Below, in pieces: positions 2,930 to 18,058 of a stretch of 18,058 nucleotides of DNA (positions within the stretch are counted from its first letter, which is position 1; each line of letters starts with the position of its first letter). A program made the translations under genes and the position numbers. Below the pieces are notes generated by a model that ran no database searches, was not told the DNA's origin, and saw only the letters and a program-made list of their open reading frames with translations. Source of the DNA: a virus (lineage: Duplodnaviria; Heunggongvirae; Uroviricota; Caudoviricetes); the IMG/VR virus record IMGVR_UViG_2695420538_000011. One strand, written 5' to 3'.

Positions 2930-3436
2930 TTATGGTCTGCCATGGTTTTCATGAAAACCCAGTTCTTTTTCTACCCTCTTCCTTTCTGCAATAGCGTCAA
3001 TGATGCTAGCAAATATTCCAAGATATTTGGTGCGCCCATCTACGCATATATTCGCAATCCACTTACATCTCTCTTTATTGAAATATACTCCAGTCACTCC
3101 TGACGAATTGGTTATTTTTCTCTTTTGGTTCTGTGCATTCTGTTGGTGTGTAACCAATCGAAGATTAGATAGCCTATTATCTGACCTTACTCCATTTATA
3201 TGATCAATTTTATACCCTAATGGAATCTCACCATTATTTATCATCCATATAACGTGGTGAGCATAAGTAATTACACCATCGATAGTTAACATCCTATAAC
3301 CATCACTCCTAATGTAACCAGCAACACTGCCAACCTTAACATTATTAGAAGGAGACACTTTCCATCTAAGTACACCTAAAACATCATCATATGATAATTT
3401 ATTTCTTAATTCGTCTATGTTGCTTATATTTCTCAT
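2930..3436 (-). CDS. HNH (HNH_3-type) endonuclease with a C-terminal AP2-like DNA-binding region; homing-endonuclease-like insertion in the nin region
   Basis: 168 aa. It carries a GYKIDHINGVRSDNRLSNLRLVTHQQNAQNQ HNH motif followed by a GVTGVYFNKERCKWIANI AP2-like segment. Local base composition is visibly more AT-rich than the flanking nin genes. Lambda has no gene between ninF and ninG. Confidence 0.8.
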   Translation of the reverse strand: MRNISNIDELRNKLSYDDVLGVLRWKVSPSNNVKVGSVAGYIRSDGYRMLTIDGVITYAHHVIWMINNGEIPLGYKIDHINGVRSDNRLSNLRLVTHQQNAQNQKRKITNSSGVTGVYFNKERCKWIANICVDGRTKYLGIFASIIDAIAERKRVEKELGFHENHGRP

Positions 3437-3578
3437 TATGTTCCACCATATTTAAGCATTCATATATACAACGCTCACACACATGAACTTCCAGCACATG
3501 CAGCTTCTGACCACAGTTAGCGCACGTTAAAGCTCGCTCGACGCTTTCTTGTTCGTAACTTCGATTTGGGTCAATCAC
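3399..3578 (-). CDS. ninF: NinF-like zinc-ribbon protein with a divergent C-terminus
   Basis: The [25 protein letters not shown] core matches lambda NinF as recalled. A GTG at 3578 overlaps the ninE stop (GTGA), the same coupling as lambda; the alternative ATG at 3620 gives the 73-aa track ORF. The C-terminal residues ([22 protein letters not shown]) are encoded by AT-rich DNA continuous with the HNH insertion. Confidence 0.6.
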
Positions 3579-3757
3579 CTTGTATTCCTCGCACGATGTC
3601 TTAGCCACCGGATATCCCACAGGTGAGCCGTGTAGTTGAAGGTTTTTACGTCAGATTCTTTTGGGATTGGCTTGCGTTTATTTCTGGAGCGTTTCGTTGG
3701 AAGGTATTTGCAGTTTTCGCAGATGATGTCGGTGATACTTCGTCGCTGTCGTCTCAT
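3575..3757 (-). CDS. ninE: NinE
   Basis: Start is at the internal Met ([60 protein letters not shown], 60 aa), matching lambda NinE from memory. Its ATG overlaps the ninB stop, so ninC and ninD are absent. Confidence 0.8.
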
Positions 3758-4194
3758 GCCGCCCTGTCTCCCCATCGCGCTTTCCATTCGAGAGCCAGTC
3801 GCGCTTCGTCCGACCACTTAACGCCACGCTCTGTACCGAATGCCTGTATAAGCTCTAATAGCTCCGCAAATTCGCTTACACGCATCCTGCTGGTTGACTG
3901 GCCTATTACCACAAAGCCATTCCCGGCAAGGTTAGGAACAACATCCTGCTGCTTTAATGCTGCGGTAAACACACACTTCCAGCTTTCTGCATCCAGCCAG
4001 CGACCATGCCATTCAACCTGACGAGAGACGTCACCAAGGCAAGCCCAAAGCTTTCGATTCTGGTCTAAGCTGCGGTTGCGTTCCTGAATGGTTACTACGA
4101 TTGGTTTGGTTGGGTCTGGAAGGATTTGCTGGATAGCTTGAATGGCGTTCTGCTGATGTGCTGGAGATCGAATTTCAAAGGTTAGTTTTTTCAT
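3754..4194 (-). CDS. ninB: NinB (Orf), recombination mediator
   Basis: Start is at the internal Met ([31 protein letters not shown]...), 146 aa, matching lambda NinB. The track ORF is extended by 6 codons upstream. Confidence 0.9.
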
Positions 4195-4210
4195 GACTTC
4201 CCTCTCCCCC

Positions 4211-4242
4211 AAATAAAAAGGCCTGCGATTACCAGCAGGCCT
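4211..4242 (-). terminator. Intrinsic terminator tR2
   Basis: On the minus strand an 8-bp GC-rich stem (AGGCCTGC / GCAGGCCT, 8-nt loop) is followed by TTTTATTT. It lies between ren and ninB, exactly where lambda tR2 sits. Confidence 0.65.
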
Positions 4243-4267
4243 GTTATTAGCTCAGTAATGTAGATGG

Positions 4268-4558
4268 TCATCTTTTAACTCCATATACCGCCAATACCCG
4301 TTTCATCGCGGCACTCTGGCGACACTCCTTAAAAACCAGGTTCGTGCTCATCTTTCCTTCCCGTTCTTCCCTGGTAGCAAACCGGTAATACACCGTTCGC
4401 CAGACCTTACCTTCGATAACCAGAAGACCTGCCCGTGCCATTTTAGCCGCGGCCTGATTTATGCTGGTTACTGTTGCGCCTGTTAGCGCGGCAACGTCCG
4501 GCGCACAGAAGCTATTATGCGTCCCCAGGTAATGAATAATTGCCTCTTTGCCCGTCAT
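4268..4558 (-). CDS. ren: Ren (Rex-exclusion resistance protein)
   Basis: 96 aa, MTGKEAIIHYLGTHNSFCAPDVAALTGATVTS..., matching lambda Ren from memory. It overlaps the P stop. Confidence 0.9.
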   Translation of the reverse strand: MTGKEAIIHYLGTHNSFCAPDVAALTGATVTSINQAAAKMARAGLLVIEGKVWRTVYYRFATREEREGKMSTNLVFKECRQSAAMKRVLAVYGVKR

Positions 4559-5256
4559 ACACTTGCTCCTTTCAGTCCGAACTTAGCTTTGATTTCTGCG
4601 ATCTTCGCCAGAGCCTGTGCACGATTTAGAGGTCTACCGCCCATGACAGGAAGTTGTTTTACTGGTTCAGGGATCGCCTCACCACGGTTAATTCTCGCAG
4701 TCATATGGACAAGCTCATCTGCGGCCTTACGGCGTAATTCCGCATCAGTAAGCGCATTGGCCCGCATGTTCTGATACAGGTTGGTAACCAGCCAGTAGTG
4801 CGCGTTTGATTTCCACGGATAAGACTCCGCATCCGGATACAGGCCTCGCTTCCGGCAATACTCGTAAACCATATCAACCAGCTCGCTGACGTTTGGCAGT
4901 CCGGCGGTAACGGATGCTTCTTCCCGGCACCATGCAACAAACTGCCCGGGTGATGGCAGAAATGGTCGATTCTGCCGACGGGCTACGCGCATTCCTGCGT
5001 TAACCTGTTCCATCGTGGTGATCCCGTTTTCCCGAAAAGCCAGAACCCACTGGCGACGGATTTCGTTCACTTCGTTCTGGTCACGGTTAGCCAGGCTCGC
5101 CGGGAAAGTTGCCAGTAACTGGCTGAACACACCGTTGATGATCTGCGCTACCTGCTGTACCTGCGGCTTTTCGTCGTAGTGTTCCGGCATGTTGTTGGCG
5201 ATCCGACGCATCTGCTCACGGTCAAAGTTAACCATCTGTGCGGCGATGTTTTTCAT
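4555..5256 (-). CDS. P: Replication protein P (DnaB helicase loader)
   Basis: 233 aa, MKNIAAQMVNFDREQMRRIANNMPEHYDEKPQ..., matching lambda P. It overlaps the O stop. Confidence 0.95.
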   Translation of the reverse strand: MKNIAAQMVNFDREQMRRIANNMPEHYDEKPQVQQVAQIINGVFSQLLATFPASLANRDQNEVNEIRRQWVLAFRENGITTMEQVNAGMRVARRQNRPFLPSPGQFVAWCREEASVTAGLPNVSELVDMVYEYCRKRGLYPDAESYPWKSNAHYWLVTNLYQNMRANALTDAELRRKAADELVHMTARINRGEAIPEPVKQLPVMGGRPLNRAQALAKIAEIKAKFGLKGASV

Positions 5257-6152
5257 AGATCCACCCCGTAAATCCAGTCTGTGTTTGTCAGGTCGAGTTT
5301 TGGTTTGCTGGCTGTCACGCCTGCCTGTTGCTTGTTACGGTTGATTTCGAGTTGGGTCCACTTATCGCGGAGTTTGGCCGGACTCAGCACGTTACCGGAC
5401 CAGAAGTTGTCCTGGCATGCCCAGCGGAACAGCACACACATGTCGCGGTGGTTACGTCCGTCACGTTCACGCATCAGGCGGATATCGTTAGCCCACCCAG
5501 CAAAATTCGGTTTTCTGGCTGATGGTGCGATAGTCTTCACCATGTCAAACATCCACTCTGCGGCGGTCAGGTCTTCTGCTGTCCCCCACTTGCTGCCGCT
5601 CTGAATTGCAGCATCCGGTTTCACCACAGAAAGGTCGTTTTCTGGCTGGTCAGAGGATTCGCCAGAATTCTCTGACGAATAATCTTTTCTTTTTTCTTTT
5701 GTAATAGTGTCTTTTGTGTCCCCCTGTTTTGAGGGATAGCAATCCCCCAATTTGAGGGATGTTTTATCCCTCGTTTTAGGGGATTTTCCCTCGTTTTGAG
5801 GGATGCACCATTCTGAGATGTTTTTATTTGGTCCAAACATGCCGCCTTGCTGCTTGATAATATTCATTCTGACGAGTTCTAACTTGGCTTCATTGCACCG
5901 TTTGACAGGTAACTTTGTAATCTCGCTAAGTTGAGAATCGGTGATTCTGTCCATTGGTTTATTCCACCCATAGGTTTTACGCAGAATGGCAAGCAGCACT
6001 TTAAACTGTCGCTTGGTCAGATCTGCGCCCGAATAAGCCTCAAGCAGCATATTTGATAGTCTGGCGTAACCATCATCGAGATCTGCCACATTACGCTCCT
6101 GTCCGGCAAAGTTACCTCTGCCGAAGTTGAGTATTTTTGCTGTATTTGTCAT
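5253..6152 (-). CDS. O: Replication initiator O
   Basis: 299 aa, MTNTAKILNFGRGNFAGQERNVADLDDGYARLSNMLLEAYSG..., matching lambda O. The ori iterons lie inside the gene. Confidence 0.95.
   Translation of the reverse strand: MTNTAKILNFGRGNFAGQERNVADLDDGYARLSNMLLEAYSGADLTKRQFKVLLAILRKTYGWNKPMDRITDSQLSEITKLPVKRCNEAKLELVRMNIIKQQGGMFGPNKNISEWCIPQNEGKSPKTRDKTSLKLGDCYPSKQGDTKDTITKEKRKDYSSENSGESSDQPENDLSVVKPDAAIQSGSKWGTAEDLTAAEWMFDMVKTIAPSARKPNFAGWANDIRLMRERDGRNHRDMCVLFRWACQDNFWSGNVLSPAKLRDKWTQLEINRNKQQAGVTASKPKLDLTNTDWIYGVDL
5680..5805. repeat. ori-lambda: four roughly 19-bp O-binding iterons (5720-5805) plus the adjacent AT-rich unwinding region (5680-5719)
   Basis: Four tandem inverted-repeat iterons of the form ATCCCTCAAAACGAGGGAT (variants at 5720-5738, 5742-5760, 5766-5784, 5787-5805) sit within O. 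They are flanked by the T/A-rich run AATCTTTTCTTTTTTCTTTTGTAATAG. Confidence 0.88.
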
Positions 6153-6162
6153 AATGACTCCT

Positions 6163-6239
6163 GTTGATAGATCCAGTAATGACCTCAGAACTCCATCTGG
6201 ATTTGTTCAGAACGCTCGGTTGCCGCCGGGCGTTTTTTA
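6163..6239 (+). ncRNA. oop: oop antisense RNA (antisense to the cII 3' end)
   Basis: Coordinates are transposed from the lambda map using the colinear O and cII boundaries. A GC-rich hairpin followed by GCGTTTTTTATT (6221-6240) on the plus strand matches the oop terminator as recalled. Confidence 0.6.
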
Positions 6240-6478
6240 TTGGTGAGAATCGCAGCAACTTGTCGCGCCAATCGAGCCATGTCGTCGTCAACGACCCCCC
6301 ATTCAAGAACAGCAAGCAGCATTGAGAACTTTGGAATCCAGTCCCTCTTCCACCTGCTGATCTGCGACTTATCAACGCCCACAGCTTCCGCTGTCTTCTC
6401 AGTTCCAAGCATTGCGATTTTGTTAAGCAACGCACTCTCGATTCGTAGAGCCTCGTTGCGTTTGTTTGCACGAACCAT
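6185..6478 (-). CDS. cII: Transcriptional activator cII
   Basis: Start is at the internal Met (MVRANKRNEALRIESALLNKIAMLGTEKTAEAVGVDKSQISRWKRDWIPKFSMLLAVLEWGVVDDDMARLARQVAAILTNKKRPAATERSEQIQMEF, 97 aa), identical to lambda cII as recalled. The track ORF carries a 20-codon upstream extension. Confidence 0.95.
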   Translation of the reverse strand: MVRANKRNEALRIESALLNKIAMLGTEKTAEAVGVDKSQISRWKRDWIPKFSMLLAVLEWGVVDDDMARLARQVAAILTNKKRPAATERSEQIQMEF

Positions 6479-6495
6479 ATGTAAGTATTTCCTTA
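6456..6495 (+). promoter_or_regulatory. pRE (cII-activated promoter for repressor establishment)
   Basis: A TTGC-N6-TTGC cII recognition motif (TTGCGTTTGTTTGC, 6456-6469) lies on the plus strand inside the 5' end of cII and is oriented toward cro antisense and cI. Confidence 0.65.
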
Positions 6496-6557
6496 GATAA
6501 CAATTGATTGAATGTATGCAAATAAATGCATACACCATAGGTGTGGTTTAATTTGAT

Positions 6558-6589
6558 GCCCTTTTTCAGGGCTGGAATGTGTAAGAGCG
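6558..6589 (-). promoter_or_regulatory. nutR (boxB hairpin and boxA), with the tR1 region downstream toward cII
   Basis: On the minus strand boxA is CGCTCTTAC (plus 6581-6589) and boxB is GCCCTGAAAAAGGGC (plus 6558-6572), located between cro and cII. Confidence 0.75.
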
Positions 6590-6596
6590 GGGTTAT

Positions 6597-6806
<210 letters not shown>

Positions 6807-6821
6807 TTAGTACATGCAACC

Positions 6822-6892
6822 ATTATCACCGCCAGAGGTAAAATAGTCAACACGCACGGTGTTAGATATTTATCCCTTGCGGTGATAGATTT
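6822..6892. promoter_or_regulatory. Right operator OR1-OR2-OR3 with divergent promoters pR (toward cro) and pRM (toward cI)
   Basis: OR1 is TATCACCGCCAGAGGTA (6824-6840), OR2 is CAACACGCACGGTGTTA (6848-6864) and OR3 is TATCCCTTGCGGTGATA (6871-6887). The pRM -35 TAGATA and -10 TAGATT lie upstream of the leaderless cI ATG at 6898. Confidence 0.9.
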
Positions 6893-6894
6893 AA

Positions 6895-7611
<717 letters not shown>

Positions 7612-7723
7612 TCGGCAAGGTGTTCTGGTCGGCGCATAGCTGATAACAATTGAGCAAGAATCTTCATCGAATTAGGGGAATTTTCACTCCCCTCAGAACA
7701 TAACATAGTAAATGGATTGAATT

Positions 7724-8563
7724 ATGAAGAATGGTTTTTATGCGACTTACCGCAGCAAAAATAAAGGGAAAGATAAGCGCTCAATAAACCTGTCTGTTTT
7801 CCTTAATTCTCTGCTGGCTGATAATCATCACCTGCAGGTTGGCTCCAATTATTTGTATATTCATAAAATCGATGGAAAAACTTTTCTCTTTACCAAAACA
7901 AATGACAAGAGTCTGGTTCAGAAGATAAATCGCTCTAAAGCTTCAGTTGAAGATATTAAGAACAGCCTCGCAGATGACGAATCATTGGGATTCCCATCTT
8001 TTTTGTTTGTTGAAGGCGACACCATTGGTTTTGCCAGAACTGTTTTCGGGCCGACCACATCCGATCTGACAGATTTTTTAATCGGGAAAGGAATGTCATT
8101 AAGCAGTGGAGAGCGCGTTCAGATAGAGCCACTGATGAGGGGAACCACCAAAGACGATGTTATGCATATGCATTTCATCGGCCGAACAACGGTGAAGGTA
8201 GAAGCCAAGCTACCTGTATTTGGCGATATATTAAAGGTCTTAGGGGCAACAGATATTGAAGGGGAGCTTTTTGACTCATTGGATATAGTCATTAAGCCAA
8301 AATTTAAAAGGGATATAAAAAAGGTTGCCAAGGATATTATTTTTAACCCGTCACCTCAATTTTCAGACATTAGCCTGCGGGCAAAAGATGAGGCCGGAGA
8401 TATTTTAACAGAACATTATCTATCAGAAAAAGGCCATCTCTCAGCGCCTCTGAACAAGGTCACCAATGCTGAGATAGCTGAAGAGATGGCATATTGCTAC
8501 GCAAGAATGAAAAGTGATATACTGGAATGTTTTAAAAGGCAGGTGGGCAAAGTTAAGGATTAA
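7724..8563 (+). CDS. rexA: RexA (abortive-infection / phage-exclusion sensor)
   Basis: 279 aa, MKNGFYATYRSKNKGKDKRSINLSVFLNSLLADNHH..., matching lambda RexA as recalled. It occupies the canonical position downstream of cI. Confidence 0.95.
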   Translation: MKNGFYATYRSKNKGKDKRSINLSVFLNSLLADNHHLQVGSNYLYIHKIDGKTFLFTKTNDKSLVQKINRSKASVEDIKNSLADDESLGFPSFLFVEGDTIGFARTVFGPTTSDLTDFLIGKGMSLSSGERVQIEPLMRGTTKDDVMHMHFIGRTTVKVEAKLPVFGDILKVLGATDIEGELFDSLDIVIKPKFKRDIKKVAKDIIFNPSPQFSDISLRAKDEAGDILTEHYLSEKGHLSAPLNKVTNAEIAEEMAYCYARMKSDILECFKRQVGKVKD

Positions 8564-8578
8564 TTATCAGGAGTAATT

Positions 8579-9013
8579 ATGCGGAACAGAATCATGCCTG
8601 GTGTTTACATAGTAATAATTCCTTACGTTATCGTAAGCATTTGCTATCTCCTTTTCCGCCACTACATTCCTGGTGTTTCTTTTTCAGCTCATAGAGATGG
8701 TCTTGGGGCGACATTGTCATCATATGCAGGAACCATGATTGCAATCCTGATTGCTGCCTTGACGTTTCTAATCGGAAGCAGAACGCGCCGACTGGCCAAG
8801 ATTAGAGAGTATGGGTATATGACATCGGTAGTTATTGTCTATGCCCTTAGTTTTGTTGAGCTTGGAGCTTTGTTTTTCTGCGGGTTATTGCTTCTTTCCA
8901 GCATAAGCGGCTACATGATACCCACTATCGCCATCGGCATTGCCTCTGCATCGTTCATTCATATATGCATCCTTGTTTTCCAACTATATAATTTGACCAG
9001 AGAACAAGAATAA
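8579..9013 (+). CDS. rexB: RexB (membrane ion-channel partner of RexA)
   Basis: 144 aa with multiple hydrophobic helices, MRNRIMPGVYIVIIPYVIVSICYLLFRHYIPG..., matching lambda RexB as recalled. Confidence 0.95.
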   Translation: MRNRIMPGVYIVIIPYVIVSICYLLFRHYIPGVSFSAHRDGLGATLSSYAGTMIAILIAALTFLIGSRTRRLAKIREYGYMTSVVIVYALSFVELGALFFCGLLLLSSISGYMIPTIAIGIASASFIHICILVFQLYNLTREQE

Positions 9014-9039
9014 CCCGGCCTCAGCGCCGGGTTTTCTTT
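9014..9039 (+). terminator. Intrinsic terminator after rexB (timm)
   Basis: Hairpin CCCGGC-CTCAGC-GCCGGG followed by TTTTCTTT, immediately after the rexB stop codon. Confidence 0.75.
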
Positions 9040-9185
9040 GCCTCACGATCGCCCCAAAACACATAACCAATTGTATTTATTGAAAAATAAATAGATACAA
9101 CTCACTAAACATAGCAATTCAGATCTCTCACCTACCAAACAATGCCCCCCTGCAAAAAATAAATTCATATAAAAAACATACAGAT

Positions 9186-9256
9186 AACCATCTGCGGTGA
9201 TAAATTATCTCTGGCGGTGTTGACATAAATACCACCGGCGGTGATACTGAGCACAT
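9186..9256 (+). promoter_or_regulatory. Left operator OL3-OL2-OL1 with promoter pL
   Basis: OL3 is at 9186-9202, OL2 at 9206-9222 and OL1 at 9230-9246. pL has -35 TTGACA (9220-9225) and -10 GATACT (9243-9248) with a 17-bp spacer, driving plus-strand transcription into N. Confidence 0.9.
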
Positions 9257-9287
9257 CAGCAGGACGCACTGACCACCATGAAGGTGA

Positions 9288-9318
9288 TGCTCTTAAAAAT
9301 TAAGCCCTGAAGAAGGGC
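9288..9318 (+). promoter_or_regulatory. nutL (boxA and boxB)
   Basis: boxA-like GCTCTTAAAAA (9288-9298) is followed by the boxB hairpin GCCCTGAAGAAGGGC (9304-9318). Confidence 0.75.
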
Positions 9319-9490
9319 AGCATTCAAAGCAGAAGGCTTTGGGGTGTGGTGAAGGGTTCATGGATGGGAATATGTCGCACGTAAAGCGGCGAGGCCTGCG
9401 GAACTATTGCCGAATTGAAGTCGGCCGAAGCAGGTCGAAATGGGTCTCCCACCTACCACACCACCAAAGCTAACTGACAGGAGAATCCAG

Positions 9491-9817
9491 ATGGATGCAC
9501 AAACACGCCGCCGCGAACGTCGCGCAGAGAAACAGGCTCAATGGAAAGCAGCAAATCCCCTGTTGGTTGGGGTAAGCGCAAAACCAGTTAACCGCCCTAT
9601 TCTCTCGCTGAATCGCAAACCGAAATCACGAGTAGAAAGCGCACTGAATCCGATAGACCTTACGGCGCTGGCTGAATACCACGAACAGATTGAAAGCAAC
9701 CTGCAACGTATTGAGCGCAAGAATCAGCGCACATGGTACAGCAAGCCACGCAGTGAAATGGGCGTGACTTGTGTTGGTCGCCAGAAAATGAAATTAGGCA
9801 GCAAACCACTTATTTGA
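9491..9817 (+). CDS. N: Antiterminator N (lambda-type, variant C-terminus)
   Basis: Start is at the internal Met (MDAQTRRRERRAEKQAQWKAANPLLVGVSAKPVNRPILSLNRKPKSRVESALNPIDL...), containing the arginine-rich boxB-binding motif. The last ~25 residues differ from lambda N as I recall it. Confidence 0.9.
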   Translation: MDAQTRRRERRAEKQAQWKAANPLLVGVSAKPVNRPILSLNRKPKSRVESALNPIDLTALAEYHEQIESNLQRIERKNQRTWYSKPRSEMGVTCVGRQKMKLGSKPLI

Positions 9818-9825
9818 GGTGAGAT

Positions 9826-10296
9826 ATGACAAAATCATGGAGCGTACCTTTTCCTGAATCAGAAACTGAACATGATGGAATGCCTGTTTTCTGGAGATTC
9901 CAGGCGACAGTTGAAGAAGATGGAATCAAAATATTCGCACTTCAATATATAGCTTTTCATCAGACAGAGCATTATGCATGGTTGGTTCCTGCGCATTGGA
10001 TTGTTGATTTTAAACCAGCACCAAATCAGTGGTTACAGGAATGGAAACAAAAGAGAAATAGATATGCAATTAAGAAAGTAGCAAAAAATGCAGAAAGATC
10101 TTTTGCATTCCCAACGAAGAAACTTGCCATTGAAAGTTTATTGCGCCGGAAGAAATACCATTTAATGAGAATCAAACAAGATTTGGCTGTTGTATCAACT
10201 CTTGTTGATGGGATGAAGAATATTGATACATCAACACCAGATATTGAATATAACTTTGGACACAACCAAGAAACAGAAAATTGGGTATTTTATTAG
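9826..10296 (+). CDS. Hypothetical protein, 156 aa; AT-rich accessory gene (moron) fused directly behind N
   Basis: ATG at 9826 with ribosome-binding site GAGGTGA, 8 nt after the N stop. Base composition is markedly more AT-rich than the surrounding lambda backbone. No catalytic or transmembrane motif is recognisable. Confidence 0.7.
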   Translation: MTKSWSVPFPESETEHDGMPVFWRFQATVEEDGIKIFALQYIAFHQTEHYAWLVPAHWIVDFKPAPNQWLQEWKQKRNRYAIKKVAKNAERSFAFPTKKLAIESLLRRKKYHLMRIKQDLAVVSTLVDGMKNIDTSTPDIEYNFGHNQETENWVFY

Positions 10297-10400
10297 TACA
10301 AATAAGCACTGTGTATTCATTCCAACGAGTGAATACACGGAGCAATGTCGCTCGTAACTAAACAGGAGCCGACTTGTTCTGATTATTGGAAATCTTCTTT

Positions 10401-10428
10401 GCCCTCCAGTGTGAGGGCGATTTTTTTG
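10401..10428 (+). terminator. Intrinsic terminator (N-antiterminable, tL1-like position)
   Basis: Hairpin GCCCTC-CAGTGT-GAGGGC (10401-10418) followed by GATTTTTTT. Confidence 0.65.
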
Positions 10429-10439
10429 ATGGAGGATAT

Positions 10440-11408
10440 ATGAGTGAAGTAACAGATTTAGTTGTTATTGAAAAAGCAAATGCAATGACTGTATTTCAGT
10501 CTGCCGACCAGATTGAAGAAATCCTTCAAAAGGTTGAACGTGAAGTTATGTCCTTTGTGCCTGATATCACAACGGCAAAGGGCAGAAAGGAGATCGCTTC
10601 TCTGGCGTATAAAGTTGCGCAGACGAAAACATATCTCGATGGTCTTGGCAAAGACCTTGTTGCTGAACTGAAGGAAATTCCAAAGCTAATTGATGCCAAC
10701 CGCAAGACAGTGCGCGATCGCCTTGATGAACTGAAAGCCAAGGCGCGCCAGCCTCTTACTGATTATGAGGAAGAACAGGCGCGGATTAAAGCCGAAGAAG
10801 AAGCTAAGGCAGCAGCTGAAGCTCTCGCAAAGCAAATTGAGTCTGACCATGAAATAGCGATTTTGATGGATCGCGAATTTGACCGCCAAAGAGAAGAGGC
10901 AAGACTCAAAGCGGAGCAGGAAAAGCGAGAGTATGAAGAACGCTTAAAAAGAGAAGCTGAAGAGAAAGCCAGAGCTGAAGCCGAAGCAAAGGCAAAAGCA
11001 GAAATTGAAGCAGCAGCAAGGCGAGAAGCAGAAGCTAAGGCCGCAGCGGAACGTGCAGAGCGTGAACGCATTGAAGCCGAGCAACGAGCACAGCGCGAAG
11101 CAAAAGAGGCAGCAGAACGAGCTGAAAGAGAAAAGCAGGCGGCAATTGAAGCAGAACGCCGAAAAGCACAGGAGGAGGCTGAACGAATCCGGCGCGAAGC
11201 TGAAGCAAAAGAGCAAGCCAGAATAGCAGAAGAAAAAAGAATCAAGGACGAAGAAGAGCGTAGAGCAAAGGATAAAGCTCACCGGAAAGAAGTAAATAAC
11301 AAAATACTTGCTGACCTTATCAAGGTTGGTGCATCAGAAGATGTTGCTAAAAATATCATAACAGCCATCGTAAAAGGCGAAGTATTCGCAACAAAAATAA
11401 CCTACTAA
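10440..11408 (+). CDS. Hypothetical protein, 322 aa, with a long central E/A/K/R-rich coiled coil (TolA-like low complexity)
   Basis: Start is taken at ATG 10440 (ribosome-binding site GGAGGA at 10431-10436); the track ORF begins upstream at 10386 and would run through the terminator hairpin. A roughly 110-aa N-terminal globular region is followed by about 170 aa of EAEAKAKAEIEAAARREAEAK-type repeats and a roughly 45-aa C-terminal domain. Confidence 0.7.
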   Translation: MSEVTDLVVIEKANAMTVFQSADQIEEILQKVEREVMSFVPDITTAKGRKEIASLAYKVAQTKTYLDGLGKDLVAELKEIPKLIDANRKTVRDRLDELKAKARQPLTDYEEEQARIKAEEEAKAAAEALAKQIESDHEIAILMDREFDRQREEARLKAEQEKREYEERLKREAEEKARAEAEAKAKAEIEAAARREAEAKAAAERAERERIEAEQRAQREAKEAAERAEREKQAAIEAERRKAQEEAERIRREAEAKEQARIAEEKRIKDEEERRAKDKAHRKEVNNKILADLIKVGASEDVAKNIITAIVKGEVFATKITY

Positions 11409-11432
11409 TAAAACCAACATAAGGAACCACCC

Positions 11433-11564
11433 ATGATTTACGCAATCGCGGGAGGCGCTCGCATGGGTGCCTTCCAATTAAATGAATCTTTACTTGAACG
11501 AATCACCCGTAAATTACGTGACGGATGGAAAAGAGTTGAAGTCTTATTATGCGCAATGAAATAG
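11433..11564 (+). CDS. cIII: cIII-like protein (FtsH/HflB inhibitor), 43 aa
   Basis: My own translation gives MIYAIAGGARMGAFQLNESLLERITRKLRDGWKRVEVLLCAMK. The ESLLERITRKLRDGWKR core matches the lambda cIII amphipathic helix as recalled. Ribosome-binding site is AAGGAA. The ORF is below the track cutoff. Confidence 0.7.
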   Translation: MIYAIAGGARMGAFQLNESLLERITRKLRDGWKRVEVLLCAMK

Positions 11565-11701
11565 CCATCAATCACCAGATGCTTCGTGCTGCACAGAACA
11601 AAGCAGTAATAGCAAGATTTATTGGTGATTCCAAAATGTGGCTTGAAGCAAATAAAGCGATGAAATCAGCGATCAACATTCCGTGGTATCGCAGGAAATG
11701 A
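11549..11701 (+). CDS. Kil-like small protein, 50 aa
   Basis: My own translation gives MRNEIAINHQMLRAAQNKAVIARFIGDSKMWLEANKAMKSAINIPWYRRK. It overlaps the cIII 3' end as lambda kil does. Similarity to lambda Kil is from vague recall only. Confidence 0.45.
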   Translation: MRNEIAINHQMLRAAQNKAVIARFIGDSKMWLEANKAMKSAINIPWYRRK

Positions 11702-11805
11702 GTTTTACAGATAACTGGTCAGACGAAGAATTCATTCGTCAGATGAAAGAAATGCTCAATCAGCACAAAGAACAGGAGAAAGATGATGATTCTGACTCTG
11801 AATGA
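11698..11805 (+). CDS. Possible small acidic ORF, 35 aa
   Basis: ATGA overlap with the kil-like stop; translation MSFTDNWSDEEFIRQMKEMLNQHKEQEKDDDSDSE. It overlaps the start of the next gene out of frame and has no other support. Confidence 0.3.
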   Translation: MSFTDNWSDEEFIRQMKEMLNQHKEQEKDDDSDSE

Positions 11806-12094
11806 TAAGCGTGAAATATCGCAAATTATCGCAAGTTTTACTGATGAAGATTACGAACGAATCAACAGTGAAGTTGATCGCCTCTGCAAACGTTGCGACC
11901 CAATAAGCGAAATGCTTCGCTCATATAAACCAGATGAACACACTAAGGACGCTATCGACTGGCTGGAAGATGATGACTGTAACTATCAGGAAAAAGCCGC
12001 TGAATGGTTCTGGGATGCAATAACCGAAAGAGTTAAGGCTGAATATGCCTTCGCAATATTCAAGCGCAGACACATTTTTGGAGAAGCAGCATGA
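11783..12094 (+). CDS. Hypothetical acidic protein, 103 aa, at the position lambda gam occupies
   Basis: Ribosome-binding site AGGAG at 11774-11778, with ATG at 11783 or 11786. D/E-rich sequence with no resemblance to lambda Gam. The stop overlaps the RecT start (ATGA). Confidence 0.6.
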   Translation: MMILTLNDKREISQIIASFTDEDYERINSEVDRLCKRCDPISEMLRSYKPDEHTKDAIDWLEDDDCNYQEKAAEWFWDAITERVKAEYAFAIFKRRHIFGEAA

Positions 12095-13002
12095 GCAATA
12101 TCGTTGAATTCGTTAAACAGCAGGAGCAGTTATTCTGCGGAGCATTGACTGAACAGACGGTGACATGGGCTAAGGAAAGCCAGTTTGCAATTCAGTATTT
12201 CCAGAAAAACGATTACCTGGCTAAAACAGCACTGGCAAATCCAACCAGCGCACAGAACGCCATCATCAATGTTGCGGCGATCGGCATCACCTTAAACCCG
12301 GCCAGCAAACTGGCTTATCTGGTTCCTCGCGACGGCATGGTGTGCCTTGATATCAGTTATATGGGATTGCTCCATATTGCAATGGAGTCTGGTGTTATCT
12401 CATGGGGTCAGGCAAAACTTGTTCATGCTAACGATACCTATGAGTCAAACGGGCTTGATAAAGCACCAACCCATAAATACAACGCCTTCGGTGATCGTGG
12501 TGATATCGTTGGCGTTTACTGCACAGTTAAGACGCCAGCAGGTGATTATCTAACGGAAGAGATGAGTCTGGCTGAAATTGAGGCTGTAAGGAAAACAAGC
12601 AAGGCGGCATTCAGCGATAAAGGACCATGGGTAAATCACTGGAATGAGATGGCGCGAAAGACGGTCGTAAAGCGTGCAAGCAAGTATTGGCCTAAGGCAT
12701 CACGTCTTGATAGTGCTATTCACGTACTAAACGAAGAAGAAGGTGTGTGGACTGAACCAGTTATGCCGCACAAATCAGAGGAAGATATCCGCGAAGATGA
12801 ACGGAAACGCCAGCAGGAAATAATGGAAAAAGCACAACTTCTTTGTGATGAAATGGCTCAGGCTGAAAAAATGGATGATTTGAAGAGATATTTTGCAGAA
12901 GCATATCGCCTGACATCTGGAATGAAATTGCAGCAGAACATACAAGCCATTTACATAGAATGCAAAGCGAAACTGGAGGTTGCCAGTGAGCAAACTGTAT
13001 GA
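12091..13002 (+). CDS. recT: RecT-family single-strand annealing recombinase (replaces lambda Bet)
   Basis: 303 aa. The motif GPWVNHWNEMARKTVVKRASKYWP matches the conserved RecT signature (GPW..HW.EMA.KT...R..KY.P). Ribosome-binding site is GGAGAAG. Confidence 0.85.
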   Translation: MSNIVEFVKQQEQLFCGALTEQTVTWAKESQFAIQYFQKNDYLAKTALANPTSAQNAIINVAAIGITLNPASKLAYLVPRDGMVCLDISYMGLLHIAMESGVISWGQAKLVHANDTYESNGLDKAPTHKYNAFGDRGDIVGVYCTVKTPAGDYLTEEMSLAEIEAVRKTSKAAFSDKGPWVNHWNEMARKTVVKRASKYWPKASRLDSAIHVLNEEEGVWTEPVMPHKSEEDIREDERKRQQEIMEKAQLLCDEMAQAEKMDDLKRYFAEAYRLTSGMKLQQNIQAIYIECKAKLEVASEQTV

Positions 13003-13468
13003 AATAGCCAATGAATACGCAAAATTGATGGATTCAGATTTAGAACCAGAGATGATTGCTGACACAATAGAAGGCATGGAAGGAGAATTTACCGATAAAA
13101 TAGAGCAACTTCTTTCCGTCATTAAAAATGAATCTGGTTATGCTGAACGCCTCAAGGAAGAGGCAAAGTCACTTAATGAGCGAGCCGCAGTAATCCAAAA
13201 TAAGATTGACAGCATCAAATCATATATAGCGTCATCGCTTGAAATGGTTGGCAAGAAAAATATTCGAGCAGGTATTCACCAGGTAACAATCCGCAAACCG
13301 TCAGAAATTGTAGAAATAATCGACTCAAGCGCCCTTCCTCCTGAATACGTTGAGTTTGAAACGACAATTAAAGCCGACAAACTGGCAATCAAACACCAAC
13401 TAAAAGCAGGAATAAATATCCCCGGCGCTCAACTCAAAGTTGGGAAACCTTCACTTCTTATCAAATAA
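12986..13468 (+). CDS. Hypothetical protein, about 160 aa, possibly Gp157-family (recombination-module-associated)
   Basis: The track lists this from 12980 (a TTG codon); GTG 12986 has better spacing to the GGAGG ribosome-binding site. The protein is coiled-coil-rich with an MSKLYEIANEY start. The family assignment is tentative and from memory. Confidence 0.5.
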   Translation: MSKLYEIANEYAKLMDSDLEPEMIADTIEGMEGEFTDKIEQLLSVIKNESGYAERLKEEAKSLNERAAVIQNKIDSIKSYIASSLEMVGKKNIRAGIHQVTIRKPSEIVEIIDSSALPPEYVEFETTIKADKLAIKHQLKAGINIPGAQLKVGKPSLLIK

Positions 13469-13479
13469 CGGTATCGCCT

Positions 13480-13794
13480 ATGAAAAAGACTCCATGGGAG
13501 AAATGGGAAGTCGATTTCTTGCGCGAGGTAGCGGCGACAATGCCAGTTGAAGTTATCGCAGAAAAACTGGAAAGGACTGAAAAAGCAGTAATGGCGAAAG
13601 CAACAAGGATTGGCGCTGACATTGTTAGCCGACTTCGTGGAAGACGCTGGACAAGAGCCGAAGTATCACTTTTCGGTAAGTTCTCCGCAGAAGAAATAGC
13701 AATTGCAACCTGCCGCTCAATTTATTCAGTAAGAGCTATGCGATACAAGCTAAAAAAACTCGATGAAGAAAGAGCAGGCATACGAATAAATTAA
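13480..13794 (+). CDS. Hypothetical protein, 104 aa, with an internal tandem duplication of a W-x3-EV...E(V/I)IA...R(T/S)..(A/S)V.A motif
   Basis: Residues 5-45 and 57-95 align to each other (WEKWEVDFLREVAATMPVEVIAEKLERTEKAVMAK versus WTRAEVSLFGKFSAEEIAIATCRSIYSVRAMRY). This may be a helical DNA- or RNA-binding repeat. Confidence 0.55.
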   Translation: MKKTPWEKWEVDFLREVAATMPVEVIAEKLERTEKAVMAKATRIGADIVSRLRGRRWTRAEVSLFGKFSAEEIAIATCRSIYSVRAMRYKLKKLDEERAGIRIN

Positions 13795-13810
13795 CATGGA
13801 ATAATTAACA

Positions 13811-14092
13811 ATGAAGCTAAACATCGACCTCGGAAAATACGTTATTACCGGAACCAAACACGACCTGATTCTTAGCGAAAGAGGAATTATCAAAGAAGGC
13901 GAGAATGCAGGGAAAGAAACACTAAGTCGTATCGGTTATTACAGCAAGTTTGAGCATCTGGTTAAAGAGTTATGCAACCGTGAAATCCTGTTATCTCAGG
14001 CGCAGACGCTACAGGATATTCAGCAGCATATCGAGACTTTAGGTGTATCACTTAGCATGGCTGTTGACCAGTTCATGGAGAGTAAATCATGA
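13811..14092 (+). CDS. Hypothetical protein, 93 aa
   Basis: ORF in the supplied track; its stop overlaps the next start (ATGA). No recognisable motif. Confidence 0.5.
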
Positions 14093-14256
14093 GAGGACTT
14101 GCATACAATCCCGGCATTCTTCCGGCAGAAATGATTATTCGCCAACGCGTAAAGCCAATGCCATCGAGAGAGGAATTGCTTAAGCGAAACTCGTTTCCAT
14201 CAGTGAATCAGAACAAATATCTGAATGCGATGTGGCGTAAAGGAGGCAAACAGTGA
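14089..14256 (+). CDS. Hypothetical small protein, 55 aa
   Basis: My own translation gives [55 protein letters not shown]. Ribosome-binding site GGAGAG; ATGA and GTGA coupling on both sides. Confidence 0.45.
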
Positions 14257-14501
14257 GCAATTCAGCACGACTACAGCTTGGTTTTTCACCGCTATCAAAA
14301 ACAATCGTGTTGGCAAAAATGCGTGACTTAGGGGATGGAACAAAACGTCGTGTCGGCAATGATCGCGGTCGCGATGTAACCAACGAGGCCGCACAACTCG
14401 TTTGGCATCTAGTCATGGCTGAAGGCGGTGAAATTAATTGGGAGCTGGATGATGGTTCTCGCATGGTATTGAAGGCAGAAAAGCAGGAGCCTCCACAGTG
14501 A
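14253..14501 (+). CDS. Hypothetical protein, 82 aa (GTG start)
   Basis: Ribosome-binding site AGGAGG at 14241-14246 with GTG at 14253. It is translationally coupled to its neighbours. Confidence 0.5.
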
Positions 14502-14773
14502 ATATCGACACCACGATAACGATCGATACGGCCCTAAATACCGGACTGGCACTTCTCGGTTGGCTTTACATCATGTCCAGTACATGGCGATGGCTGGGTT
14601 CCATTTTCCTAAAACAGTGGAAAAAACGGCGCAAACAGGAACTACGCCAGAAGGCATTAGAAGCGTTCTATGACGCATTTGAACTTAGCCGCATAGAACC
14701 AGGCACAACAGCCAGGATAGCGACAAAAGGCGACCTGATGATAGTGATGTTCAGACAGGAGAAAACAAAATGA
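14498..14773 (+). CDS. Hypothetical small membrane protein, 91 aa (one predicted transmembrane helix, basic juxtamembrane segment)
   Basis: GTG start with ribosome-binding site AGGAG. The hydrophobic segment LNTGLALLGWLYIMSSTWRWLGSIFL is followed by KQWKKRRKQELRQK. Confidence 0.55.
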   Translation: MNIDTTITIDTALNTGLALLGWLYIMSSTWRWLGSIFLKQWKKRRKQELRQKALEAFYDAFELSRIEPGTTARIATKGDLMIVMFRQEKTK

Positions 14774-14994
14774 CAGAACAGACGATGACAAATCGCGAAC
14801 TTGTTGATGCCGCGATTGAACTTGCTGGCGATTTTTATTCCATGATGGGTTACGAGCATCGACCTGGTTTTAAGTATTGGGAGTCACCGCATCCGCAAGA
14901 ACAACAGGTGTTTGAAATGGCTTGCCGTGCTTTTGAGGTTATTCGCGGTTCTGATGTGATGGACGCCGTTGCCGACTTGGAGGATGAAGAGTGA
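14770..14994 (+). CDS. Hypothetical acidic protein, 74 aa
   Basis: ATGA overlap with the upstream gene; ribosome-binding site AGGAG; GTGA overlap with the downstream gene. Confidence 0.5.
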   Translation: MTEQTMTNRELVDAAIELAGDFYSMMGYEHRPGFKYWESPHPQEQQVFEMACRAFEVIRGSDVMDAVADLEDEE

Positions 14995-16232
14995 GCGAGA
15001 TTAACTATCAGGCACTGCGTGAAAAGGCAGAAAAAGCAACGTGGGGAGACTGGGACTCATATAAACCACACCGTGGCGCACGTGGTTATAAGGTCCGACT
15101 AAGTGGTCAGGCCATTGCGCAACACGTTCTGAAAAACAACGCTGAATTTATTGCTGCCTTTAATCCAAAGGTTGCTTTGGCATTACTGGATGAACTGGAA
15201 AGAAACCAGCAATACATAAAACGCCGCGACCAGGAGAACGAGGAAATTGCGCTAACGGTAGGGAAGCTGAGAGTTGAGCTTGAGGAAGTAAAACAACACG
15301 CTGAAGAATTATCCGAAACCAAGGCTGTTCGTAACCAATGGCGGCCAGATATTTGCCCAATAACCGGACGTGCATTTTTCATGTGGATTGAGCATCCAAC
15401 ATTGGGGAATGTGCCGACATATGGTGGCCCATTAGATAGTTACACCATTCCAACAAAGGACGGTGACGGTGAGTTTTCATGTGAGCGTTACGATCATGAT
15501 TTTGGCGGTTGGGTAGAAAGCGAATGTCTTGGGTTATATCTGATTGATGATAGAGAACAATGCAGGGTCTACGAACTGGAGGAACGCGTTAAGGAACTGG
15601 ATGCTCGGGAAATATCGCTCCCGGAACGTAGCAGCATGCTTCATCGAACAGATTTTCACGATGATTACCAAACGGTAATGGCATACAAAGTTTCTGAAGT
15701 CATCGCTGCAATCCGCGCCGCCATGCTTCAGTCCGGAAACTTTCGGGAAAACAAGAATTCGTCAACCAATAATTTTCGGGAAATCGCGGAAACGTCAACC
15801 AACTATCCGGCAATTCCTAGTGAGGTGTTGTCCGCAATCCTGAAGGTTGCCAGGATTCGTGCCGATTTCGATGATTTTGACGGTGACAGGCGAGGTATCG
15901 GTGATTGTCTGGATGAGGCTGAGCAAGAGCTTATCGTTACCATTAACAAATATGCCAGTCAGTTGGCAGCAGAACCTATAGCGCCTAATGACGTTCGAGA
16001 GCAGACAGCCATTCCACAAGTTCCGGTAACTCCGGATGGTTGGATAAGCTGTAGTGAGCAAATGCCCGCTCAAGATGATTGGATTTTAATTTATTCAAAG
16101 CACGGCGAGTATATGGCAGGACAGGTACAAGGGGAATACGTGGAGTTGAGCGACGGCACTTTATCGTGGTTAGGGAACGCCTTGTACTGGATGCCGCTAC
16201 CAGAACCGCCGCAGGAGGTTAACCGTGGCTAA
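14991..16232 (+). CDS. Ead/Ea22-like protein with a C-terminal DUF551-like domain, 413 aa
   Basis: GTG start with ribosome-binding site GGAGGA. The N-terminus MSEINYQALREKAEKATWGDW and the C-terminus WISCSEQMPAQDDWILIY...YWMPLPEPP resemble the Ead/Ea22 and DUF551 families common in enterobacterial prophages, assigned from memory. Confidence 0.7.
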   Translation: MSEINYQALREKAEKATWGDWDSYKPHRGARGYKVRLSGQAIAQHVLKNNAEFIAAFNPKVALALLDELERNQQYIKRRDQENEEIALTVGKLRVELEEVKQHAEELSETKAVRNQWRPDICPITGRAFFMWIEHPTLGNVPTYGGPLDSYTIPTKDGDGEFSCERYDHDFGGWVESECLGLYLIDDREQCRVYELEERVKELDAREISLPERSSMLHRTDFHDDYQTVMAYKVSEVIAAIRAAMLQSGNFRENKNSSTNNFREIAETSTNYPAIPSEVLSAILKVARIRADFDDFDGDRRGIGDCLDEAEQELIVTINKYASQLAAEPIAPNDVREQTAIPQVPVTPDGWISCSEQMPAQDDWILIYSKHGEYMAGQVQGEYVELSDGTLSWLGNALYWMPLPEPPQEVNRG

Positions 16233-16509
16233 CCTTCAACTTGCCGTCAAAGGTGAATACTTCGATGCCATGATTCGCGGAGAGAAAACGGAAGAGTATC
16301 GCCTGTGTAATGACTATTGGAATAAGCGCCTCGTTAACCGTAAGTATGACCGCCTGATTATCACAAAGGGATATCCGAAGCGCGACGATTCCAGCCGCAG
16401 AATTGATGTTCCGTATGACGGATATGAAATAAAGACAATCACACATCCCCACTTCGGCGATAAACCGGTAAAGGTGTTCGCGATAAAGGTAAATATCGGC
16501 AATAAATAA
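16225..16509 (+). CDS. ASCH-domain (PUA-like) protein, 94 aa
   Basis: GTG start with ribosome-binding site AGGAGG. It contains the ASCH signature G-x-K-x-x-E-x-R (RGEKTEEYR). Confidence 0.65.
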   Translation: MANLQLAVKGEYFDAMIRGEKTEEYRLCNDYWNKRLVNRKYDRLIITKGYPKRDDSSRRIDVPYDGYEIKTITHPHFGDKPVKVFAIKVNIGNK

Positions 16510-16513
16510 CAAT

Positions 16514-16539
16514 CCTCGCACTCGCGGGGATTTATTTTA
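16514..16539 (+). terminator. Intrinsic terminator after the ASCH gene
   Basis: Hairpin CCTCGC-ACTC-GCGGGG (one G-U pair) followed by ATTTATTTT. Confidence 0.5.
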
Positions 16540-16581
16540 TCTGAACTCGCTACGGCGGGTTTTGTTTTATGGAGATGATAA

Positions 16582-16749
16582 ATGCACTTCCGAGTCACAG
16601 GTGAATGGAATGGAGAACCATTCAACAGAGTTATCGAAGCAGAGAACATCAACGACTGCTATGACCACTGGATGCTGTGGGCGCAGATAGCACATGCAGA
16701 CGTAACCAATATTCGAATTGAAGAACTGAAAGAACACCAAGCCGCCTGA
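16582..16749 (+). CDS. Hypothetical small protein, 55 aa, upstream of xis
   Basis: My own translation gives MHFRVTGEWNGEPFNRVIEAENINDCYDHWMLWAQIAHADVTNIRIEELKEHQAA. Ribosome-binding site GGAG. The stop codon lies inside a CCGCC-TGAT-GGCGG hairpin followed by TTTTTTCTT. Confidence 0.5.
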   Translation: MHFRVTGEWNGEPFNRVIEAENINDCYDHWMLWAQIAHADVTNIRIEELKEHQAA

Positions 16750-16800
16750 TGGCGGTTTTTTCTTGCGTGTAATTGCGGAGACTTTGCGATGTACTTAACA
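16743..16800 (+). promoter_or_regulatory. Terminator-like hairpin and cII-activated promoter pI overlapping the xis start
   Basis: Hairpin CCGCC-TGAT-GGCGG plus T-run (16743-16769), then a TTGC-N6-TTGC cII site (TTGCGTGTAATTGC, 16763-16776) just upstream of xis, as in lambda pI. Confidence 0.55.
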
Positions 16801-17007
16801 CTTCAGGAGTGGAACGCACGCCAGCGGCGCCCAAGAAGCCTTGAAACAGTTCGTCGATGGGTGCGCGAATGCAGGATATTCCCTCCTCCGGTTAAGGATG
16901 GAAGAGAGTATCTGTTCCACGAATCAGCGGTAAAGGTTGACTTAAATCGACCAGTAACAGGTAGCCTTTTGAAGAGGATCAGAAATGGGAAGAAGGCGAA
17001 GTCATGA
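16789..17007 (+). CDS. xis: Excisionase Xis
   Basis: 72 aa, MYLTLQEWNARQRRPRSLETVRRWVRECRIFPPPVKDGREYLFHESAVKVDLNRPVTGSLLKRIRNGKKAKS, identical to lambda Xis as recalled. Confidence 0.95.
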   Translation: MYLTLQEWNARQRRPRSLETVRRWVRECRIFPPPVKDGREYLFHESAVKVDLNRPVTGSLLKRIRNGKKAKS

Positions 17008-18058
17008 GCGCCGGGATTTACCCCCTAACCTTTATATAAGAAACAATGGATATTACTGCTACAGGGACCCAAGGACGGGTAAAGAGTTCGGATTAGGCAG
17101 AGACAGGAGGATAGCAATTACTGAAACAATACAGGCCAATATTGAGTTACTCTCAGACAGCGGACGCAAATCACTGATAGACAGAATTAAAGGCGGTGAC
17201 GCAATCACTCTTCATGTGTGGCTTGACCGATATGAAAGAATCCTCACCGAAAGGGGGATCAGGCCGAAAACTCTACTCGACTACGCCAGCAAAATCAGGG
17301 CAATCCGAAGAAAATTGCCGGACAAACCGCTCACTGACATATCAACGAAAGAAGTGGCAGCAATGCTAAACACCTACGTAGCAGAAGGTAAAGCAGCTTC
17401 CGCAAAATTAATCAGGTCAACCCTTGTTGACGTTTTTCGTGAAGCAATAGCCGAGGGGCATGTGGCAACGAATCCGGTAACAGCAACCCGTACAGCAAAG
17501 TCAGAAGTAAGGCGCTCAAGGCTGACAGCTAATGAGTATGTCGAGATTTACCATGCAGCCGAACCTCTCCCTATCTGGCTAAGGCTGGCGATGGATTTGG
17601 CCGTCGTTACAGGGCAGAGAGTCGGCGATTTGTGCAGAATGAAATGGTCAGACATAAACGACAACCATCTTCACATTGAACAGAGTAAAACAGGGGCTAA
17701 ACTCGCCATTCCGCTAACGCTAACGATTGACGCGCTCAATATCTCACTGGCTGATACACTACAGAAATGCAGGGAGGCCAGCAGCAGTGAAACTATAATC
17801 GCATCAAAGCATCACGATCCGCTTTCCCCGAAAACAGTATCAAAGTATTTTACAAAGGCGAGAAATGCATCTGGACTCTCATTTGATGGAAACCCGCCAA
17901 CATTCCATGAACTGCGTAGCCTGTCAGCGAGGCTATACCGGAACCAGATTGGCGATAAGTTTGCTCAACGTCTTCTCGGGCATAAATCAGACTCAATGGC
18001 GGCGCGGTATAGGGACAGCCGTGGACGGGAATGGGACAAAATTGAAATCGACAAATGA
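16985..18058 (+). CDS. int: Tyrosine integrase Int (lambda family; N-terminal arm-binding domain lambda-like, core and catalytic domains divergent)
   Basis: 357 aa. The N-terminus MGRRRSHERRDLPPNLYIRNNGYYCYRDPRTGKEFGLGRDRRIAITE matches lambda Int as recalled. Catalytic residues are present (GQRVGDL, HELRS, LLGHKS, MAARY). It overlaps xis as in lambda. Confidence 0.93.
   Translation: MGRRRSHERRDLPPNLYIRNNGYYCYRDPRTGKEFGLGRDRRIAITETIQANIELLSDSGRKSLIDRIKGGDAITLHVWLDRYERILTERGIRPKTLLDYASKIRAIRRKLPDKPLTDISTKEVAAMLNTYVAEGKAASAKLIRSTLVDVFREAIAEGHVATNPVTATRTAKSEVRRSRLTANEYVEIYHAAEPLPIWLRLAMDLAVVTGQRVGDLCRMKWSDINDNHLHIEQSKTGAKLAIPLTLTIDALNISLADTLQKCREASSSETIIASKHHDPLSPKTVSKYFTKARNASGLSFDGNPPTFHELRSLSARLYRNQIGDKFAQRLLGHKSDSMAARYRDSRGREWDKIEIDK

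Follow-up and report, generated by a model that had tools for sequence, protein, structure and literature searches.

As shown by comparison with its homologues, the open reading frame (ORF) at positions 9826-10296 of the window (the whole 18,058-nt stretch of Caudoviricetes DNA that was analysed, IMG/VR record IMGVR_UViG_2695420538_000011) is a genuine conserved accessory gene under purifying selection. It lies directly past the antiterminator gene N in a lambdoid pL operon, and of its identity and expression context, taken by themselves, we are highly confident. As to what the protein does, we tentatively favour a host-directed role in counter-defence or takeover, exerted by binding to nucleic acid or to a nucleotide-like ligand, a reading to which we give somewhat less than an even chance.

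The window covers a lambdoid early region and is oriented along leftward (pL) transcription. On the plus strand, cI (6898-7611) is followed by rexA, rexB, a terminator, pL, the nutL boxB and N. The features around the ORF are as follows.

9012-9033, plus strand: terminator after rexB, ahead of pL
9220-9248, plus strand: pL promoter (TTGACA-17-GATACT), found by consensus scan within a stretch 98% identical to lambda
9304-9318, plus strand: nutL boxB hairpin GCCCTGAAGAAGGGC, read directly, its stem also flagged by the scan; lambda annotates nutL at the matching place
9491-9817, plus strand: N antiterminator gene, 108 aa (PF11438, E 1.6e-26; called by PGAP in a 99.98% identical prophage)
9764-9825, plus strand: left flank travelling with the cassette, here the end of N and the ribosome-binding site
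9816-9822, plus strand: Shine-Dalgarno sequence GAGGTGA, a 7-nt anti-Shine-Dalgarno match overlapping the N stop codon
9826-10296, plus strand: gp45/L0079-family gene (PHROG 1636), 156 codons, for a basic compact protein with no assigned function
10309-10340, plus strand: hairpin with a 14-bp stem, a 4-nt loop and no U-tail; part of the lambda backbone, and in lambda just past ral
10399-10427, plus strand: intrinsic terminator, a GC-rich stem (10399-10420) followed by T7 (10421-10427); the first predicted intrinsic terminator past pL

Read directly from the sequence, the stop codon of N (TGA, 9815-9817) and the start codon of the ORF (ATG, 9826-9828) are separated by 8 nt. The initial annotation had reported a 156-aa ORF at this distance with a strong ribosome-binding site, and the 7-nt GAGGTGA confirms it. 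It also called the ORF fused behind N; the adjacency is real, but the two genes are in different reading frames and the word can only be figurative. So short a gap, together with a ribosome-binding site that overlaps the stop codon of N, suggests that ribosomes ending N can reinitiate at the ORF and that translation of the two genes is coupled. A consensus scan of the plus strand from 8900 to 11600 found pL as the sole sigma-70-like site and none between pL and the ORF, in agreement with the pL control proposed earlier.

Downstream, the hairpin and terminator described in the initial annotation are both present. The 9-bp stem seen there is the perfect core of the hairpin (GTGTATTCA/TGAATACAC), which begins about 10 nt beyond the stop codon of the ORF, and the stem extends to 14 bp. 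The core is kept in 69 of 75 related loci, the hairpin region is 97% identical in lambda, and the folding z-score for 10290-10435 is -4.6. The hairpin could be an RNA-processing or RNA-stability element; a Rfam scan of the window returned no family. The stem of the terminator (10399-10420) recurs unchanged at lambda 33931-33952, in the interval from ral to ea10, and the HK97 annotation places a putative terminator at the matching position. Directly past the terminator, in the place of lambda ea10, lies a 322-aa ORF (10440-11408, plus strand), rich in Lys, Glu and Ala and probably a coiled coil, which belongs to PHROG 1376 (no assigned function) and is named ‘TolA protein’ in one phage record.

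The ORF has a GC content of 35.9%, against 45.8% for the window and 50.6% for N, and a GC3 of 27%, against 46% for N. In a sliding GC analysis across the window only 1.6% of 471-nt windows were as AT-rich, so the AT-richness noted earlier holds and GC content is not uniform. An equally AT-rich stretch occurs elsewhere in the window, at 3001-3450 in the nin region (GC 0.32-0.35), around a minus-strand gene at 2930-3436. The counterpart of this gene in a 99.9% identical prophage is annotated by PGAP as a protein with an HNH endonuclease signature motif, and it looks like a further inserted accessory or homing-type gene.

The ORF sits in a replacement segment of clear outline. Homology to lambda (98%) runs from 3754 to 9792 and resumes at 10306-10439, which is 97% identical to the ral-ea10 stretch of lambda (33911-34045); position 10306 of the window corresponds to lambda 34045. 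The non-lambda segment thus replaces exactly lambda 34046-35061, that is sieB, orf28 and ral, and whatever signals that stretch of lambda holds are absent from the window. The earlier placement of the ORF in the ral/sieB slot was exactly right. Its description as an insulated single-gene cargo does not stand, since the hairpin and terminator belong to the backbone stretch that is 97% identical to lambda 33911-34045, and genes were replaced, not inserted between neighbours. Homology to HK97 (98.5%) extends over 9764-10426. In this window the left junction lies within the 3' end of N and the right junction a few bases past the stop codon of the ORF.

Cassette boundaries were derived from 80 near-identical loci in IMG/VR. 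Among these, the left junction lies at about -16, -28 or beyond -62 and the right junction within about 10 nt of the stop codon; hence the mobile unit consists of only the ribosome-binding site and the ORF. The sequence TTATTTGAGGTGAGAT directly ahead of the ATG is kept in almost all upstream-flank classes listed for these loci, and a few classes read GAGGTGATAT instead. The 62 nt at 9764-9825 are the same sequence as the non-coding spacer between N and gp45 in HK97 (L001, 3939-4000), where the N stop codon lies at the first bases of the shared stretch. The gap between N and gp45 is 58 nt in HK97 and 933W, which have a different N allele, and 8 nt here, with the lambda allele. Judged by this match, the HK97 spacer is the remnant of the 3' end of an N gene of lambda or 21 type and travels with the cassette, which suggests that the cassette was first attached to an N gene of that type. 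The N gene of the window is 90% identical to lambda N, with the differences clustered in the last 22 residues, because the 62-nt flank encodes its end. N therefore has a non-lambda C-terminus here, in the region that we take to bind RNA polymerase.

Among 64 related loci with a resolved upstream gene, that gene was N-like in 44 (four alleles), Nun-like in 9 and another small early gene in 11, so that an N-like or Nun-like neighbour precedes it in 53. Where flanks were complete (73 loci), a terminator was found within 220 nt downstream in 64; no terminator was present in the 160 nt upstream in 66 and a terminator-like site was present there in seven. These counts do not represent independent events, as the loci belong to closely related E. 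coli prophages. From pL to int (9250-18058) the window is 99.98% identical to a prophage (L101) beside torS in E. coli strain 100117, which has another repressor, cro, cII and replication region and thus represents a clean immunity-module swap. The presence of the gene behind a lambda-type N is routine lambdoid mosaicism. The initial annotation had called it a horizontally acquired moron; a shuffled accessory cassette it is, but not a classical moron, as no promoter of its own was found and its terminator belongs to the backbone.

Nor is the gene the orphan it was taken for. It matches PHROG 1636 over residues 1-156 of 156 (E 1.4e-111) and is 98.1% identical to HK97 gp45 (NP_037731) and 98.7% identical to the L0079 copy of 933W (AAD25424); H-19B carries an unannotated copy, 98-99% identical. 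It occurs in 83 phage records, including dozens of Stx1 and Stx2 phages, and 598 of 5,426 complete E. coli genomes (about one in nine) contain matching DNA, with up to four copies per genome, always annotated as ‘hypothetical protein’. A genome scan for wider loci yielded only 6. Relatives at 55-85% identity are confined to Enterobacterales (Salmonella, Cronobacter, Pectobacterium, Brenneria, Rosenbergiella), and 22 Enterobacterales homologues share 40 invariant columns, with the whole length conserved even at 55% identity. Among 1.84 billion representative proteins, a profile search extended the family to 87 representatives at E < 1e-3, most of them 130-160 residues long and 20-25% identical, which includes distant phage relatives. 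Long matches among the proteins (P0060, P0080, P0051) were considered as possible fusions and proved uninformative; P0060 resembles a repeat-driven false positive.

Protein-coding constraint is evident from two comparisons. Copies encoding 63%-identical proteins give pN of about 0.21 and pS of about 0.78, with synonymous sites saturated, and the sole unsaturated pair, NX263 versus Bas81, gives a dN/dS of 0.135. That the ORF is spurious or decaying and has no function, as its lack of an assigned function might imply, is refuted by this purifying selection, the full-length conservation to 55%, a confident fold, the conserved ribosome-binding site and the wide distribution, and we consider it practically negligible. 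The gene is nevertheless dispensable, as lambda has none.

Searches against known families gave no assignment, in line with the earlier statement that the protein has no recognisable motif. Pfam returned nothing significant (best E 0.18, far short of family cut-offs) and NCBIfam no match; the PDB gave no significant match by sequence, with either the single protein or a 74-sequence profile, and a Pfam scan of the 74 superfamily members revealed no common family. The PADLOC search proposed in the initial annotation was run, and its best match in PADLOC-DB (Cas1_II, E 0.01, 13 bits over 46 residues) is at chance level. No annotated homologue carries a function, and no experiment assigns one. A literature search on HK97 gp45, 933W L0079, their accessions and HK97 anti-defence did not find a functional study.

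The protein has a mass of 18.6 kDa and a pI of 8.7. An AlphaFold2 run with 22 close homologues alone reached a pLDDT of 55 and was replaced by a run with the 74-sequence superfamily alignment, which gave a pLDDT of 95.9 and a pTM of 0.83. This model predicts a compact single domain with a three-stranded sheet, short helices and a 33-residue helix: strands at 19-30, 33-46 and 50-55 are long and one at 83-86 is short, two short helices accompany the 33-residue one (98-130), and the N- and C-terminal tails are ordered. A fold search of the PDB with the model gave no match. The same search of BFVD gave 13 matches at E < 1e-3, all uncharacterised phage proteins, from phages of diverse hosts (Erwinia, Achromobacter, Delftia, Rhizobium, Tenacibaculum and others).

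Residues 74-118 carry a net charge of +14 with acidic ends on both sides, pI exceeds 8 in 92% of superfamily members, and basic residues are kept across the superfamily at positions 24, 83/84, 87, 92, 108 and 109. Columns kept superfamily-wide are R24, G33, E/Q46, T47, K87, A101 and K109. This pattern points to the basic segment as a putative nucleic-acid- or nucleotide-binding surface. Together, the pI of 8.7 and the central +14 charge rule out an acidic DNA mimic. A conserved H-E/Q-T motif led us to consider a 2H-phosphoesterase or an ADP-ribosyltransferase; both were rejected, as there is no second motif and no fold support.

The genomic setting of the relatives is varied. In three Pectobacterium and Brenneria prophages the homologue is the last gene ahead of xis-int. 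In Escherichia phage Bas81 and Salmonella phage NX263 it opens a small operon and is followed by genes for ParB-like and RusA-like proteins, and in two metagenomic phage contigs (L098, 8001-8444; L100, 8001-8453) it stands first at a divergent junction. On the latter two contigs and on L088 (3944-4420) and L095 (3001-3477), all from unrelated phages, the homologue heads a short operon at a divergent junction, sometimes between blocks of structural genes; homologues at divergent junctions may have their own promoter, unlike the gene in the window. In other phages and contigs it lies within long runs of small early genes, among neighbours such as RecE, a helicase with VRR-NUC, SSB or DNA methyltransferases. 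No constant partner gene was found among the loci of distant relatives. Since xis-int-side positions occur and seven of the 73 loci have terminator-like sites upstream, ‘immediate-early’ does not describe the family universally. A plasmid search returned phage-like non-mobilizable records only and no conjugative plasmids, and a distant homologue as query returned nothing.

For the gene in the window, the anatomy of the operon indicates that it would be transcribed from pL on the same RNA as N, probably with coupled translation, and made together with N, since the first intrinsic terminator predicted lies downstream of both genes. The product would then appear as soon as infection or induction begins, possibly at a time when antitermination by N is not yet required. 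In a lysogen the gene should be silent, because of the repression of pL and because the terminator behind rexB stops read-through from cI-rex; for the same two reasons an early lytic role is likelier than a lysogen-protective one. Under the host-directed reading that we tentatively favour, the protein would bind nucleic acid or a nucleotide-like ligand and neutralise a host function at the onset of the lytic cycle, as a functional counterpart of the restriction-alleviation slot that it occupies. We counted in favour of this reading the conserved basic positions, the place at the head of an operon at a divergent junction that the homologue often has in more distant phages, and the frequent early, replication, recombination and methyltransferase neighbourhoods, although the link to methyltransferase and defence neighbours is anecdotal and without a background control. 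Absence from conjugative plasmids, which are frequent carriers of anti-defence genes, counts against a counter-defence role, as do the lack of similarity to any known anti-defence protein and the inconstant position of the gene, and a basic surface would suit a phage regulator, or an accessory factor of recombination, just as well. Databases, structures and the literature do not decide among the host-directed, regulator and replication/recombination readings. For the superfamily as a whole, it is possible, though we think it rather doubtful, that these phage-wide proteins with an undescribed fold are first-made basic proteins that bind nucleic acid or a signalling nucleotide and so disarm a host defence or nuclease.

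Firstly among the alternatives, the protein could be a phage-directed DNA- or RNA-binding regulator that adjusts early transcription, N activity or the choice between lysis and lysogeny. Its basic nature and conserved basic surface would suit such a role, as would the tight linkage to N or Nun in the resolved E. coli lambdoid loci (53 of 64) and the first place in an operon at divergent junctions of regulatory appearance in Bas81, NX263, L098 and L100. However, lambda and many lambdoids regulate normally without the gene, homologues occur in phages that lack N and also mid-operon or distal, and neither Pfam nor the PDB fold search detected a helix-turn-helix or other known DNA-binding fold. 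We regard a regulator as unlikely.

Secondly, and to our judgement just as unlikely as a regulator, it could be an accessory factor of the phage replication/recombination module, which binds DNA ends or structures or modulates a host nuclease or recombinase. The gene shares its operon with RecT in the window, with Erf and Abc2 in HK97 and with Gam, Bet and Exo in 933W; further afield it shares one with RecE in a Vibrio phage, with ParB-like and RusA-like genes in Bas81 and with a helicase and VRR-NUC in L094. Also in favour of this alternative, one paper depicts the recombination locus of lambdoids as a place where conflict with host systems is concentrated (10.64898/2026.07.10.737580). On the other hand, three different recombination systems mean that there is no fixed partner, in lambdoids the terminator and other genes separate the ORF from the recombination genes, and the protein has no similarity to known recombination mediators.

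Thirdly, the initial annotation had suggested a host-protection or exclusion gene, in effect a functional replacement of sieB that protects the lysogen. The gene does occupy the sieB/ral slot and is AT-rich, as many acquired defence genes are. Such a role needs expression in the lysogen, however, and the gene has no promoter of its own and lies on the pL strand directly behind N, with pL repressed in lysogens and the rexB terminator (9012-9033) ahead of pL blocking read-through from cI-rex. In addition there is no meaningful PADLOC match, the soluble basic protein is unlike SieB, and homologues also occur in phages with no integrase recorded close to the gene (Bas81, NX263, LIET2). Where Phi24B lysogen cultures were screened by proteomics and for antigens, the gene was not among the prophage products detected (PMC3342100), which is weak negative evidence. 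The suggestion is thus not supported, and we consider a lysogen-protective role very improbable.

The gene itself is neither new nor rare; it has been in GenBank since the sequencing of H-19B, 933W and HK97. Its value is as a candidate, since few uncharacterised early genes are as common in E. coli prophages, the main Shiga-toxin phages among them. Its position would allow co-expression with N, its model is confident and has no solved counterpart, and its superfamily spans unrelated phages. Where it lies, how often it occurs and the lack of a match to its fold all make it reasonable to include the gene in screens for anti-defence or host takeover. Should it prove to be a counter-defence or takeover factor, we would know what HK97- and Stx-type phages have instead of Ral, and known anti-defence proteins would gain a new fold. 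An unrecognised counter-defence gene would then occupy the Ral slot in Stx phages, in HK97 and in about 11% of complete E. coli genomes.

Compared with known systems, no similarity to any known anti-defence protein was found, and solved phage nucleotide sponges and inhibitors (Tad1, Tad2, Acb2 and others) show no fold similarity. T7 Ocr and plasmid ArdA are highly acidic DNA mimics that act as first-expressed anti-restriction proteins. The ORF product resembles them in its small size and in the place of its gene at the head of the earliest transcription unit, but with a pI of 8.73 it is not acidic, and it matches no DNA-mimic fold in the PDB. Morons of lambdoid phages, autonomous accessory transcription units in the sense of Juhala and co-workers (2000), share with the ORF the deviant AT-rich composition, the accessory nature and the presence or absence between otherwise similar phages. 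In contrast to a moron, the ORF has no detectable promoter of its own (as judged by the 8-nt gap to N and the consensus scan only), its terminator is that of the backbone, its cassette replaces genes and is not added between neighbours, and it is expected to be silent in the lysogen. Lambda Ral and SieB are closer in that they occupy the same slot (pL operon, from N to the terminator ahead of ea10) and are accessory and dispensable. SieB, encoded on the opposite strand, has no similarity to the ORF product, which is soluble and basic. Ral has 66 aa, whereas the ORF product has 156; no sequence or domain match to Ral or Lar was found, and Lar_restr_allev (PF14354) was not hit in Pfam. Still, Ral is like the ORF an early gene on the pL strand. 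The closest counterparts are HK97 gp45, 933W L0079 and the H-19B copy, which occupy the same place as the first gene past N and are followed by the same hairpin and terminator.
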